A stretch of DNA of 64,000 nt from Octopus sinensis (taxonomy: Eukaryota). The stretch is taken from positions 46,562,001 through 46,626,000 of the forward strand of contig NC_043013.1 in NCBI RefSeq assembly GCF_006345805.1, read 5' to 3'. Below are positions 14,612 through 50,025 of the stretch, piece after piece. The translations under genes and the position numbers were made by a program. The notes below the pieces were generated by a model that saw only the letters and a list, made by a program, of their open reading frames with translations, was not told the origin of the DNA and did no database searches. The stretch's first letter is position 1. Each line of letters begins with the position of its first letter.

Positions 14612-14782
14612 GTTAATCCAAACAAGAAAGCACAAAAAAAACACAACAACGCGAGGACGAGGAACAAATATAGTATTATTGGACGCTCAGGAAAGAAGGA
14701 GGGTTTAACGTTTCGAGCGGAGCTCTTCGTCGGAAACATAGGAGAAGGAAAGATCCAGAGAAGGGAAGACAGAGGAAAAATT
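14612..14782 (-). mobile_element. Penelope pLTR-like non-coding element between (TA)n tracts
   Basis: Contains a hammerhead-like fold at 14703-14737; shares TTCCTGAGCGTC..AATAC with 49170-49355. Confidence 0.65.
14703..14737 (-). ncRNA. Minimal hammerhead-like motif, variant core
   Basis: GUUU-CCGACGAA-GAGC(ucc)GCUC-GAAA-CG-UU-AAAC. Confidence 0.65.
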
Positions 14783-14949
14783 GTTTATATATATATAAAC
14801 AATTTATAAGTAAGAGCAAAAGAAAAAATTTCTACTGCCAATTTTTTCTTTTGCCCTTATGAATTGTTTATAAATTTAACCTTTAAAGGTATTTTTTAAT
14901 ATGCTGGCCATTGATTGAATTGTTTTCGAAAAATTTTATCCTACATTAG

Positions 14950-15122
14950 ATATATATATATATATATATATATATATTATATATATATATATATATATAT
15001 ATATGTATATATATATATATATATATATATATATATATATATATATATATATATATATATATATATTATATATATATATATATATATATATATATATATA
15101 TATATATATGTATATATATATA
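14950..15122. repeat. (TA)n microsatellite
   Basis: Directly visible. Confidence 0.97.
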
Positions 15123-15134
15123 CATAGGAAAGGC

Positions 15135-15277
15135 ACCTTTCAGTTTTCAAATCGACTCAGAAGGTCATGGTCGTCCAGAGGCTATAGTAGAAGACACTCG
15201 CAAAAGGTGCCACGCTGTGGGACTGAACCCGGAATCATGTAGTTAAGAAGTTACCATCTTACCACACAACCACGCCT
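15135..15277 (-). mobile_element. SINE family A, head half
   Basis: GGCTATAGTAGAAGACAC..GGGACTGAACCCGGAA. Confidence 0.8.
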
Positions 15278-15435
15278 GACACACACAGAAGCGCGCGCAC
15301 ACGCGCACACAAACATACACAGAGATGCATGCGCGCGTTCTGAAAACAACGTATTTATCTGTTTATTTGCAGATTAATGAGAGTAGAAGAGAGGAAAAGT
15401 AAATTTTGATTGGAGTTGTAAATGCTGTGCGCGAC

Positions 15436-15795
15436 TATATGAGTATGTGTATGTGTGCATGCGTGTGTGTGTGTATACAGAGAGAGAAAGAGAGAGAGAG
15501 AGAGACAGAGAGAGACAGAGATAGACAGAAAGACATATATATATATATATATATATATATATTGATATATATATGTGTGTATAATATATATATATATATA
15601 TATATATATATATATATTATATGTATATATATATGTATATATATATAATATATATATATGTATGTATATATATTATATATATATATATAATATATATATA
15701 TATATATATATATATACATATGCATATGTGTGTGGTGTGTGTGTGTGTGTGTGTGTGTGTGCGTGTGTGCATGCACGCGTGCGTGTATGTATATG
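15436..15795. repeat. (TG)/(AG)/(TA) compound microsatellite
   Basis: Directly visible. Confidence 0.95.
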
Positions 15796-16746
15796 TTGAT
15801 ATTCTGGTACTTGCTTATTATCTGTGTTGGACATCTATACTTAAACACAGGGGTTTTACAGTCTCCATCAGAGAAACATTCACAGATTACCGTTAATTTG
15901 CATCTGCCACCATACTGATTACTACGTAAGTAGAGAAACGTGGCGGGGAGGAAGCTGAAGCAATTAAAACATATCTTAATACGTTGATAGGTTTTTAGTA
16001 TTGAAAACTAAAGTTTCCCTTTTGCACTCTTAAATGATTCGCAGAGAAAACGAAGCGCTTCTCACTCACACTATTTCAAAACTAGAATTAGGCAGATACA
16101 TCAAAAGTCCAAATTCTGTATTGTTTTAATGAATAAGAATCGTGTTGTGATTAATTACAATCCTGTAACAGCGGTAGTAGTTTGATGGTCAGTAATTAGA
16201 GAGAGAAGGCAGCTAGTTCCCTCGCAGTCATTTTCTCTAACGGTTTACGATGAAGCAAAGGGGGTGGTCAGAAACGATGGTTGTTATATCCATAAGCCAC
16301 TATTAGTTGCATTTTGAGACACACTTCATGGTAAATTCGCTCATCTCGACCAAAAATCTTTTATGTGAAAGTAAATAATTGATAATTAAAAGCCAATTTT
16401 AATTTCTTTAGAAAAAGGAAGATTTTATAGTTATGAGATGTTTGATTTTATGATAGGAAAACTGCAGCGATTAACAAATCAGTAAATAAACAAATAAACA
16501 GAGGAAGAAAACCAAATTGTTTTGGTGGTGATGGGGAGGGCGGAAGCTTTTCAGGATCGGTGTTTAATAGGTGTATGGACGTAAGCATGGATGGTGCAGA
16601 GGTTGAGATGCTCGCTTCACAAGCACGAAATCCTGGGTTCTATCCAGCAGCCTGGCATCTTGGGCGAATATATTTTATCACAGTCTCAACTCAACCTAAA
16701 TCGATTACAACAGGGTTACCCGCATATATAGAGTATTCTGCTTCTT

Positions 16747-17160
16747 GAGGAGTGGCTGTGTGGTAAGTAGCTTGTTTACCAACCACATGGTTGCGGGTTC
16801 AGTCCCACTGCGTGGCACCTTGGGCAAGTGTTTTCTGCTATAGCCTCGGGCCAACCAATGCCTTGTGAGTGGATTTGGTAGACGGAAACTGAAAGAAGCC
16901 CGTCGTATATATGTGTGTATGTATATATATATGCGTGTGTGTGTTTGTGTGTCTGTGTTTGTCCCCCTAGCATTGCTTGACAACCGATGGTGGTGTGTTT
17001 ACGTCCCCGTCACTTAGCGGTTCGGCAAAAGAGACCGATAGAATAAGTACTGGGCTTACAAAAGAATAAGTCCCGGGGTCGGGCTGCTCGATTAAAGGCG
17101 GTGCTCCAGCATGGCCGCAGTCAAATGACTGAAACAAGTAAAAGAGTAAAAGAGGTAAAG
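16747..17160 (+). mobile_element. SINE family A, full length
   Basis: Highly similar to 6047-6440; A and B boxes present. Confidence 0.93.
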
Positions 17161-47722: not shown

Positions 47723-48090
47723 GGTAAGGTTGTGAGCTGGCAGAATCGTTAGTAGGCTGAGCAAAATGCTTAGCGGCACTTCGTCCGTCTCTGCGTTCTG
47801 AGTTCAAATCCTAACAAGGTCGACTTTGCCTTTCATCCCTTCCGGATCGATAAAATAAGCACCACTTGAGTATTGGGGTCAATGTAATCGAGGGAGAAAA
47901 GAAGGAATAAAAAATAAATAAAAAAATAAGATAGACTACACACTACGACACATTCACCCGCCAATCACTCACTCATAAAATCTTAAAGCAGTTTTACAAG
48001 AAGTAACACTAGAGGACTATCACGCATTTACAGACTCATGGTAGAGCCTCCACTCGATGTGGCTGGACTTGTGCCAAAATTTGAAGACAA
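47723..48090 (+). mobile_element. SINE B interrupted by an L1-Tx1 3' UTR fragment (about 47895-48053, minus strand)
   Basis: The insert matches 50490-50632 and the reverse complement of 21800-21945; the SINE tail GTGCCAAAATTTGAA resumes at about 48060. Confidence 0.8.
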
Positions 48091-48107
48091 TATCATCTCT
48101 GGTGACA

Positions 48108-48497
48108 AGCGGTGAGCTGGCAGAACCGGGCGAAATGCGTAGCCGTATTTCGTCTGTCGTTACGTTCTGAGTTCAAATTCCGCCGAGGTCGATTTTGCCT
48201 TTCATCCTTTCGGGGTCGATTAAATAAGTACCAGTTACGCACTGGGGTCGATATAATCGACTTAATCCGTCTGTCTGTCCTTGTTTGTCCTCTCTATTTT
48301 TAGCCCCTTGTGGGTAGTAAAGAAATAGGTATTTCGTTCGTTTTTACGTTCTGGGTTCGAATTCAGCCCCGAGGTCGAAGTTGTTTTTCATTCTTTCGGT
48401 GTCGATAAAATAAGTACCGGTTGAGCAGTGGGGTGATGTAATGGACATAACAGCCCCTCCCCCCAAATTGCTGGCTTTGTACAAAAATTTGAAACCA
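48108..48497 (+). mobile_element. SINE B dimer
   Basis: Junction AAAGAAATAGGTATTTCGT at about 48320-48338. Confidence 0.9.
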
Positions 48498-49218
48498 ATT
48501 TAACAACTGGTGACTTGATATTAATATATTTAATGAAAGCCCTATTAAAAACCTAATTAGAAAATGACCGCTGTATGAGTCTCGATTCGTTCTCTGTCTA
48601 AATTGACCGCCTAATGGAGGCGAGTGAGTTAATTACTGCAAAAACAAAGTACGCAAGATGATTATACTCTCCCCCATCTCTCCCCACCTTCTCCGGGTGC
48701 GCGCGCACACTCACACACACACATTTAATATGCTCATCATCAATAGAGAAAAAGTGTATGTTGGCTTAGAATGCTTCCGTACATTTGATGTTCATCTTAC
48801 AATGAAATGTAGGCGCTGTTCTCTCTATCGTTCCAGGAAACGGACTGTTGTTCCGACTTTCGTCTGTCTAATCAAGTGAACGGTGGCTGAGAGGCCCCGC
48901 CCCCTTAATAAGAGTATCGCCATCAGCAATATATATATATATATATATATATAATATATATATATATATATATATATATATGTATATATATGTATATATG
49001 TATATATACATATACATATATATATATTATACACACACGCACCTTCGTTTTGGGGCCAGCTTCGTTTTGGAAGTCACCTGACCCTGTTATCTCCCCTACT
49101 ATCCCTCTAGCGTCTAACGTCTGACCTCTGACCTCTGACTTCTGCCTGAAGTCAGAACGCCATGATAGACCGTTAGCTCCTACACACATTTCTTTCTCTC
49201 CTTGTTTTTTTCTGTGTA

Positions 49219-49256
49219 TCTTTCTGTCGAAGAGCGTAGGCTCGAAACGTAAAAGA
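49219..49256 (+). ncRNA. Minimal hammerhead-like motif, variant core, in a (TA)n-flanked element (49035-49355)
   Basis: UCUUU-CUGUCGAA-GAGC(guag)GCUC-GAAA-CG-UA-AAAGA. Confidence 0.65.
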
Positions 49257-49625
49257 CGTTTTCTATTTCTATTCCTGAGCGTCATACTAATACATTTGTT
49301 TGTTTGTACTCCACCTGCCTTCGTCTTTTGTTTATTTTCGTAAAACTTCCCGTTATATATATACATATATATATATATATAACGTAAGGGGTATTAGACA
49401 TCTGAATGTGACTAGCCACTGGGGGTGGGGGGGTGTTACTGATGCTTTTAGCCCCAGGCGATCAACGTCACCAGAAGGACTTTAGACACTATCTCAGTGC
49501 CCTTGTGTTATTTGCAAAGGGAGGTCATCCTCCCTCGAAGTCCCGAGTGCTACATACGGACTATAGGGGTATTACAACGTAAGGGGTATTAGCCATCTGA
49601 ATGTGGCTAGCCACTGGGGGGGGGG

Positions 49626-49666
49626 TGCGTTGACGAGAGGCAATTACCTTGAAACTATAGTCCGTA
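49626..49666 (+). ncRNA. Minimal type I hammerhead, copy 1 (C3U core)
   Basis: UGCG-UUGACGA-GAGG(caauua)CCUU-GAAA-CUAUAG-UC-CGUA. Confidence 0.75.
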
Positions 49667-49980
49667 TGTAGTACTCGGGTCTTCGAGGGAGGATGACCTC
49701 CCTTTGCAAATAACACAAGGGCACTGAGATAGTGTCTAAAGTCCTTCTGGTGACGTTGATCGCCTGGGGCTAAAAGCATCAGTAACACCCCCCTCCCCCA
49801 GTGGCTAGCCACATTCAGATGGCTAATACCCCTTACGTTGTCGAGCGGTTACTGTTTATATCTCGTTCAGAGATTTATTATTGTTTTCAGACAGTTTTTC
49901 TACATCAGTGACAGTGGTTACTGTGAAAAACATTATATATTATTTGCAAGGGGACTCCTTCATCGAAGACCGGTGCTTAC

Positions 49981-50025
49981 CATGCGTTGACGAGAGGCAA
50001 TTACCTTGAAACTATAGTCCGTATG
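49981..50025 (+). ncRNA. Minimal type I hammerhead, copy 2 (C3U core)
   Basis: CAUGCG-UUGACGA-GAGG(caauua)CCUU-GAAA-CUAUAG-UC-CGUAUG; palindromic ACUAUAGU; GUC cleavage triplet. Confidence 0.8.

Follow-up and report, generated by a model that had tools for sequence, protein, structure and literature searches.

The window analysed here comprises 64,000 nucleotides of the Octopus sinensis genome (C17:46,562,001-46,626,000; genome 2.72 Gb). It is repeat-rich, with a GC content of 36% and a list of open reading frames (ORFs) without obvious gene. Seven hammerhead motifs with non-canonical catalytic cores are found in it, which raises the question whether these cores decayed copy by copy or were inherited, and what motifs of this kind could do for the retroelements that carry them. 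The odd core letters turned out to be inherited by whole families or subfamilies and do not represent random decay.

Seven variant cores in type I hammerhead scaffolds

Positions are given in the standard hammerhead numbering (C3 U4 G5 A6 N7 G8 A9, G12-A15.1, U16.1, H17), which agrees with the cited papers. All seven variant cores claimed in a preliminary description of this DNA, in which the site numbers mark the low end of each motif with stem I included, were located within type I hammerhead scaffolds, three of them on the minus strand:

14703–14737, minus strand: minimal type I hammerhead of family A2 (UCC loop); position 3 at 14733, core CCGACGA+A (U4C)
19193–19229, plus strand: minimal hammerhead of family B; position 3 at 19196, core UUGAAAA+G (U3–A8 swap)
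34362–34412, minus strand: minimal hammerhead of family B'; position 3 at 34405, core GUGAACA+G (G3–C8 swap)
35188–35279, minus strand: type I hammerhead of family C; position 3 at 35273, core CCGAUGA (U4C)
49219–49256, plus strand: minimal hammerhead of family A1 (GUAG loop); position 3 at 49224, core CUGUCGA+A (A6U), A17
49626–49666, plus strand: type I hammerhead of family D, upstream unit; position 3 at 49630, core UUGACGA (U3·G8 wobble)
49981–50025, plus strand: second hammerhead of family D; position 3 at 49987, core UUGACGA, 357 bp downstream of the first
49377–50241, plus strand: family D insertion, built of a 354-bp non-coding unit in partial tandem, with 5' pieces in inverted orientation and (TA)n flanks

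The canonical CUGANGA box is absent from all seven sites, either one base (U4C, A6U, C3U) or the 3–8 pair being altered. The GAAA and UH half, described as preserved, is intact throughout, the type I order holds (stem I closes the motif, stem II lies between the boxes), and every site displays a palindromic stem III region suited to dimer pairing. Positions 3 and 8 form a C–G pair in families A1, A2 and C, U–A in B, G–C in B' and U·G in D. Families A1, A2, B and B' share an extra base after A9 together with a G10.1–C11.1 pair; C and D lack the extra base, and D has G·U at 10.1-11.1.

The stems had likewise been described as preserved, which is true in general; exceptions are the motifs at 19196, 34405 and 49630, each with a defect of its own. 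Motif 14733, situated in a Penelope-type 3' end fragment (~14594-14780), combines 4-bp stems I and II with a 4-nt palindromic stem III and U17. Motif 19196 lies in an inverted-pair insertion (~18998-19330) and has a 5-bp stem II, a 4-nt palindrome and a 3-bp stem I, the only stem I broken among the seven: its first 3' base is C in this copy and U in most family copies, a copy-level break. In motif 34405 (7-bp stem I, 6-nt palindrome; element ~34246-34426) stem II contains a C·A mismatch, which is found in most copies of this family (266 matches with and 80 without it, the latter two related families pooled). Motif 35273, with a long interrupted stem II, an 8-nt palindrome and C17, sits in a partial copy (~34990-35430) of a tandem retrozyme-like repeat with a unit of 588-599 bp. 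Motif 49224 is situated in the 5'-truncated 3' pseudo-long terminal repeat (pseudo-LTR; ~49160-49355) of a Neptune-like Penelope element. Motif 49630 (G10.1·U11.1, 8-nt palindrome, C17) belongs to a tandem-plus-inverted insertion and retains only 4 bp of stem I, with a rearrangement junction immediately upstream; stem I of motif 49987 has 6 bp.

A strict descriptor recovered three distinct sites in the window, compared with one hit over 20 shuffled windows together, and a looser descriptor ranked four of the seven sites at the top. Genome-wide pattern searches yielded 228 to 28,682 exact matches, with 0 to 10 in reversed controls. An Rfam scan of the window gave no hammerhead family among the matches listed (150 of 236), which is uninformative for motifs so short. 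Minimum-energy folds were given little weight because they often favour non-hammerhead pairings; the two-strand fold of family C yields a dimeric hammerhead.

Fixation of the variant cores

Copies were counted as genome matches to the stem patterns with the core left free, and the first 100 matches were scored by eye. Family A overall gave 28,682 matches (control 0). In family A1 (motif 49224; 14,782 matches) position 6 was U in 99, C in 1 and A in 0 of the first 100, N7 took all four bases, and the canonical core occurred in only 128 of the 14,782 matches, spread across all N7 states in a manner resembling back-mutation. Among the first 100 of the 9,480 matches of family A2 (motif 14733), 70 had C4 and 30 had U4. 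In a 35-copy tree, the support of which is rough, 14 of the 15 canonical copies with a UCC/UCA loop clustered with canonical UUU-loop sisters, and one was placed among the U4C copies. The family B core UUGAAAA was present in 19 of 30 loci (4,613 matches, some belonging to B'), several of the other loci being truncation junctions. Family B' gave 266 matches, and 90 of the 100 scored combined G3 with C8; family D (228 matches) carried U3 in all of the first 100 and UUGANGA in 96. For family C, U4C was found in 37 of 40 cores at the best BLAST loci, a sample limited to the nearest copies; within the wider family of 1,816 matches, 97 of the first 100 cores had U4 and 3 had C4.

By these core-free counts the proposed family-level variants are borne out at six of the seven sites. 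Simple copy decay, the other proposal, is refuted for six, because each listed core recurs in tens to thousands of dispersed copies. At 35188 the outcome that had been named as refuting family-level variants is seen by half: the wider family reverts to CUGANGA, though U4C is common to a young subfamily.

The 3–8 pair and covariation of the stems

The cores at 19193 (U3–A8) and 34362 (G3–C8) are indeed non-canonical, yet they represent compensatory swaps of the C3–G8 pair and not broken cores. Together with U·G, the genome holds subfamily ladders for this pair comprising C–G, U–A, U·G and G–C. Families B and B' are related to each other, and where position 8 is C, G3 accompanies the B' loop (16 of 19 long-loop loci). 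The idea of a fixed U3·C8 intermediate linking the two families was rejected: short-loop U3·C8 copies make up about one third of 29 distinct loci, which extrapolates to roughly 0.5% of family B and hence to decay.

Family D belongs to a 354-bp repeat superfamily, in which sisters 70-77% identical carry C3–G8 and U3–A8; the sister pattern gave 324 matches, with UUGACAA in 19 of the first 100. A diverged fragment of this superfamily (76-77%), lacking the hammerhead, was also noticed at 20430-20554 of the window. In a tree of 45 copies, rooted at the midpoint only, the U3 clade (100/100) contains the U3–A8 copies, among which a young U3·G8 clade (100/100) is nested (96/87). Assuming a canonical ancestor, this topology suggests that the pair passed from C–G through U–A to U·G.

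Covariation was assessed in 26 hand-chosen sequences of family D and its sisters, 22 of them distinct. Positions 3 and 8 are paired in all 22 distinct rows (CG 14, UA 5, UG 3), and both-sided changes occur at 8 of 15 pairs. At the two inner pairs of stem III, both partners have changed in 7 and 12 rows, respectively. As its bases are direct neighbours in the sequence, the innermost stem III pair is possible only between two molecules. In 13 of the 22 rows the first pair of stem II is not formed, the canonical sisters using a shifted register; at L332-L360, A9 of these sisters is followed by a C and GAAA preceded by an additional A, which shifts the stem II register. The covariation score was reached by none of 500 shuffles, a control that related sequences can beat without any structure. 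The stems and the palindromic stem III covary in the family D superfamily, and the covarying palindromes lend support to the suggested dimer dependence.

The A6U element

Coding frames for a reverse transcriptase (RT) and a GIY-YIG domain lie upstream of the A1 hammerhead. A protein search yielded 150 scored matches, many of them 97-99% identical, with open frames of up to 1,009 amino acids (aa). All 20 long-frame loci carry the hammerhead downstream (19 by exact pattern, 1 with mismatches), and in 8 of the 20 it is present in both pseudo-LTRs, 4.3-4.5 kb apart; at these loci a single upstream copy has C6 and all others U6. The RT domain matches RVT_1 of Pfam (E 6.7e-8), and the GIY-YIG domain gives a weak Pfam match (E 0.0024, below cutoff). 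At L191 one open frame (the 1,009-aa frame) combines a DKG motif, the RT core, a Cys-rich linker and, at its C-terminus, GIY-YIG, and these motifs recur at eight other loci. The elements are young and show partial-tandem pseudo-LTRs, 5' truncation and insertion in (TA)n. Judged by the Neptune clade features given in PMC8557442, the host of A1 appears to be a Neptune-like Penelope element, with a linker motif that is common to the Neptune and Nematis clades. Some 900 nt separate the hammerhead from a conserved N-terminal protein motif further downstream.

In a tree of A1 copies the U6 clade comprises 63 of 78 rows (support 100/100), and its subfamilies, ordered from older to younger, carry G, A, C and U at N7; the bootstrap of this tree had not settled. 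Within the A6U lineage only N7 and H17 change at high frequency. Among 102 copies, most of which were found by stem patterns and 40 chosen by N7 class so that the comparison is biased, a minor allele of at least 10% was present in 0 of 30 core and stem columns versus 48 of 120 flank columns; N7 was any base, and H17 was A or U, with G in 1 of 102. Moreover, contigs of four runs labelled as other organisms, aligned with no pattern anchor and at a minimum likeness of 80%, vary by at least 3% within 49220-49254 only at N7, H17 and two CpG G's; U6 is not among the variable positions.

Two other causes of A6U were considered and rejected as general ones: loss of an upstream AUG, since the ORF begins far downstream, and creation of a splice acceptor, since YAG is made by only one N7 class. 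Tandem arrays of 480-570 bp, consisting of the junction between A1 pseudo-LTR and 5' untranslated region (5'UTR), occur at C8:39642787-39644246, C5:121298319-121299364 and C15:1450350-1451514; these short arrays are possibly retrozyme-like derivatives of the A6U element.

Carriers of the other families

Families C and D form non-coding tandem units of 588-599 bp and 354 bp, respectively, with inverted 5' pieces, and resemble retrozymes in this respect. A type I hammerhead is present in each tandem unit, and the circular folds have z scores of -5.3 (family C) and -3.7 (family D) against 30 shuffles. No coding host for A2, B, B', C or D was found in the loci fetched. An RT fragment beside the family C locus L094 was examined as a host and rejected, being a separate insertion across a (TA)n run that is absent from other C loci. 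Another Penelope-type RT fragment (L155:6279-6809, minus strand; RVT_1, E 0.001) is unrelated to the adjoining family C copy. A family C tandem is further adjoined by an intronless frame of 402 aa (L157:8108-9313, minus strand), which presumably resembles a ligand-gated ion channel subunit. For the family C stretch, a run search listed no RNA run; the runs aligned are assembled contigs and are silent on expression and ends.

Possible function of the variant cores

On balance it appears probable that the variant-core motifs are slow minimal type I hammerheads, which would cut only as dimers or with the element protein; this is a prediction from sequence. The motifs would belong to Penelope-like retroelements (PLEs) and their tandem non-coding derivatives, and cutting would need two copies paired through the palindromic stem III, or the element's protein aiding the folding. 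Selection on master elements would keep the active-site fold, 3–8 swaps would retain partial activity, and U4C, A6U and U3·G8 would lower the rate. Occasional cleavage may be useful, whereas most transcripts would have to remain uncut in order to be copied with their pseudo-LTRs. A slow ribozyme could suit such an element because RNA uncut at the upstream hammerhead is the copied template.

Published systems provide parallels. Minimal hammerhead ribozymes (min-HHRs) of PLEs cleave weakly and as multimers only (Cervera and de la Peña 2014, PMC4209133). The hammerhead of PAc, a Poseidon element of Anolis, cleaves only with protein, the double change C3G/G8C gives partial rescue, and the template is mainly RNA that has not been cut (Frangieh et al. 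2024, PMC11167929). Natural A6C has a kobs < 0.1/min, and a viroid with U4C is still infectious (Perreault et al. 2011, PMC3088659). From published mutagenesis (PMC9901934, PMC11167929, PMC3088659), changes of U4, of A6 or of one member of the 3–8 pair are predicted to leave little activity, and G3–C8 to be partly rescued.

The 5' ends of insertions offer some support for cutting in family C, where 6 of 57 insertion starts lie at most 6 nt from the predicted cut (binomial p 0.0016; 4 of 37 U4C and 2 of 20 canonical copies), although the ±6-nt window was set post hoc and template switches may be favoured at palindromes. This caveat is one of several points that weigh against slow cutting. In family D none of 33 insertion starts is within 6 nt of the predicted cut. 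Likewise, among 86 A6U copies that cross from pseudo-LTR into 5'UTR, none starts within 6 nt of the cut, and 78 of the 86 read through the hammerhead. In this A1 test, copies were picked by the downstream junction, 86 of 141 matches were examined, and about 1.4 starts near the cut are expected from random truncation; one older A1 copy begins 2 nt after the cut. No autonomous element with a canonical core was found that could serve as control for the 5'-end test. The read-through copies imply that the A1 RNA which became integrated had kept its upstream hammerhead uncut, like that of canonical PAc (PMC11167929); such a result fits a slow and a dead ribozyme alike. Furthermore, when one hammerhead was mutagenised pairwise, every single and double mutant of its CUGA region was low in activity, except for the G:C swap (PMC9901934). 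The constraint tests depend on how copies were found, as the bias among the 102 A1 copies and the permissive shuffle control of family D illustrate. The same column test was not significant in A2 (3/30 vs 34/120, p 0.056; 3 of 15, p 0.76), and stem II of the A6U lineage displays no compensatory change, the first 100 of 469 matches altered at 10.2 being mostly uncompensated decay.

For the A6U family a more far-reaching interpretation may be put forward tentatively. An autonomous lineage of about 15,000 copies might have long kept its active-site fold while A6U crippled the free RNA, its own RT protein either rescuing the chemistry or using the fold as a non-cutting handle. Such an element would be a ribozyme on its way to becoming an obligate ribonucleoprotein element.

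Alternatively, the A6U lineage, and perhaps the U4C and U3·G8 subfamilies, could carry a folded RNA handle for the Penelope RT/endonuclease protein, or for a dimerising RNA, that no longer cuts. This is less probable. It would account for the missing starts at the A6U cut and the 78 read-through copies, for the amplification of ~15,000 copies despite a change expected to be strongly deleterious (PMC9901934, PMC3088659), and for the finding that PAc insertion in vitro does not need cleavage (PMC11167929). However, the variable positions are those that the chemistry leaves free (N7, and H17, which is almost never G), G5, G8, G12 and the 3–8 pair are retained, and some starts fall at the cut in the U4C subfamily of family C. 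The protein-binding region of PAc, the first 172 nt of the ORF, contains the 3' part of the hammerhead (PMC11167929), and therefore does not discriminate between ribozyme and handle.

It is unlikely that the motifs are dead or dying ribozymes fixed by founder effect, that is, dispensable passengers inherited from a changed master element. Every variant does trace to one lineage in the trees, and U4C and U3·G8 occur in younger, derived subfamilies; in addition, Naiads amplify strongly without canonical hammerheads, and hammerheads may parasitise PLEs (PMC8557442). On the other hand, A6U lasted through successive subfamilies (N7 G, A, C, U; ~0.3 changes/site along the backbone, summed by hand), and no other A1 core or stem change reached high frequency while the flanks changed. 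Moreover, U4C persists though decay of the CpG that it creates would bring back U4, and the 3–8 pair and palindromes remain paired. Copy-specific decay of canonical CUGANGA hammerheads after insertion, which accounts for the broken stem I at 19227 and for single changes here and there and agrees with the canonical wider family C, is highly improbable as a general cause, given cores common to tens to thousands of dispersed copies and a canonical A6 in only 128 of 14,782 A1 matches.

Comparison with known hammerheads

The motifs read here as slow hammerheads resemble the min-HHRs of PLEs (PMC4209133) in their type I topology, palindromic 15.2-16.2, short stem I and thousands of solo copies, as well as in the extra base after A9 (families A1, A2, B and B') and the pseudo-LTR location (A1). 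U3–A8 is known from S. mansoni, and a Saccoglossus PLE motif in Fig. S3 of that paper has U3 and G8. None of the 56 motifs in Fig. S3 carries A6U, U4C or G3–C8, the descriptor used there having required canonical boxes. Unlike those motifs, A6U is here the consensus of a 15,000-copy autonomous family. Among natural core variants, U3–A8, A6C (phage Bcep176, slow) and U4C (viroid) are described with low or retained activity (PMC3088659); they are rare single examples in tertiary-stabilised ribozymes, whereas the variants of the octopus are fixed in large retroelement families without a monomeric stem III. A6U and G3–C8 were not met in the available sections of that paper.

Families C and D resemble metazoan non-LTR retrozymes (PMC7229834; bioRxiv 10.64898/2026.07.22.740005) in their non-coding tandem units with one type I hammerhead per unit, and also in their self-paired units and Penelope-type tandem and inverted insertions. 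They differ in their variant cores, and are described here from genomic DNA. The family D unit of 354 bp is inside the retrozyme range of 170-400 nt, and that of family C (588-599 bp) above it. PAc resembles A1 in cleavage without a clear footprint and in an uncut RNA template, and differs in its canonical C3–G8 core and an ORF starting at stem II (PMC11167929).

The min-HHRs of PLEs, dimer dependence, U3–A8, U4C and one U3·G8 example are already in print (PMC4209133, PMC3088659). No natural A6U or G3–C8 family, cephalopod cases included, was found in the literature searched, which excluded several supplements and the 2017 study of Lünse, Weinberg and Breaker. The latter, to go by its title, reportedly deals with PLE-associated small hammerhead variants that cleave as dimers, and may already list some of the cores.

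The A6U autonomous family and the 3–8 ladder appear worth bench work. PLE hammerheads cut poorly in vitro, and insertion proceeds without cutting in the sole reconstituted system, which puts their role in question. The octopus genome offers natural matched pairs, canonical versus U4C and C–G versus U–A versus U·G subfamilies, by which the role of hammerheads in PLEs becomes directly testable, and the A6U family comes with its own nearly intact protein. In practical terms, descriptors that demand CUGANGA overlook tens of thousands of hammerheads carried by retroelements in this one genome.

Canonical motifs and other repeats in the window

A 453-bp tandem on the minus strand (37136-38438; 2.9 copies, 99% identical) carries canonical CUGACGA cores at 38233, 37779 and 37326. 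In its units the stem II region is long, the palindrome measures 8 nt and stem I 5 bp, and the tandem is probably a canonical retrozyme and a natural control. A canonical CUGAUGA motif at 54462 (minus strand) shares the 8-nt palindrome of family C; it belongs to a young family, 98-99% identical to L004, with a tandem spacing of about 557 bp. The canonical CUGACGA motif at 11376 (minus strand), in which the stem III/I junction has decayed, has one relative, in L174. Finally, an abundant repeat of ~230 bp resembling a short interspersed element is present at 5504-5743 and in some ten further places; tandem forms of 184 bp occur at 28141-28508 and 31430-32034.

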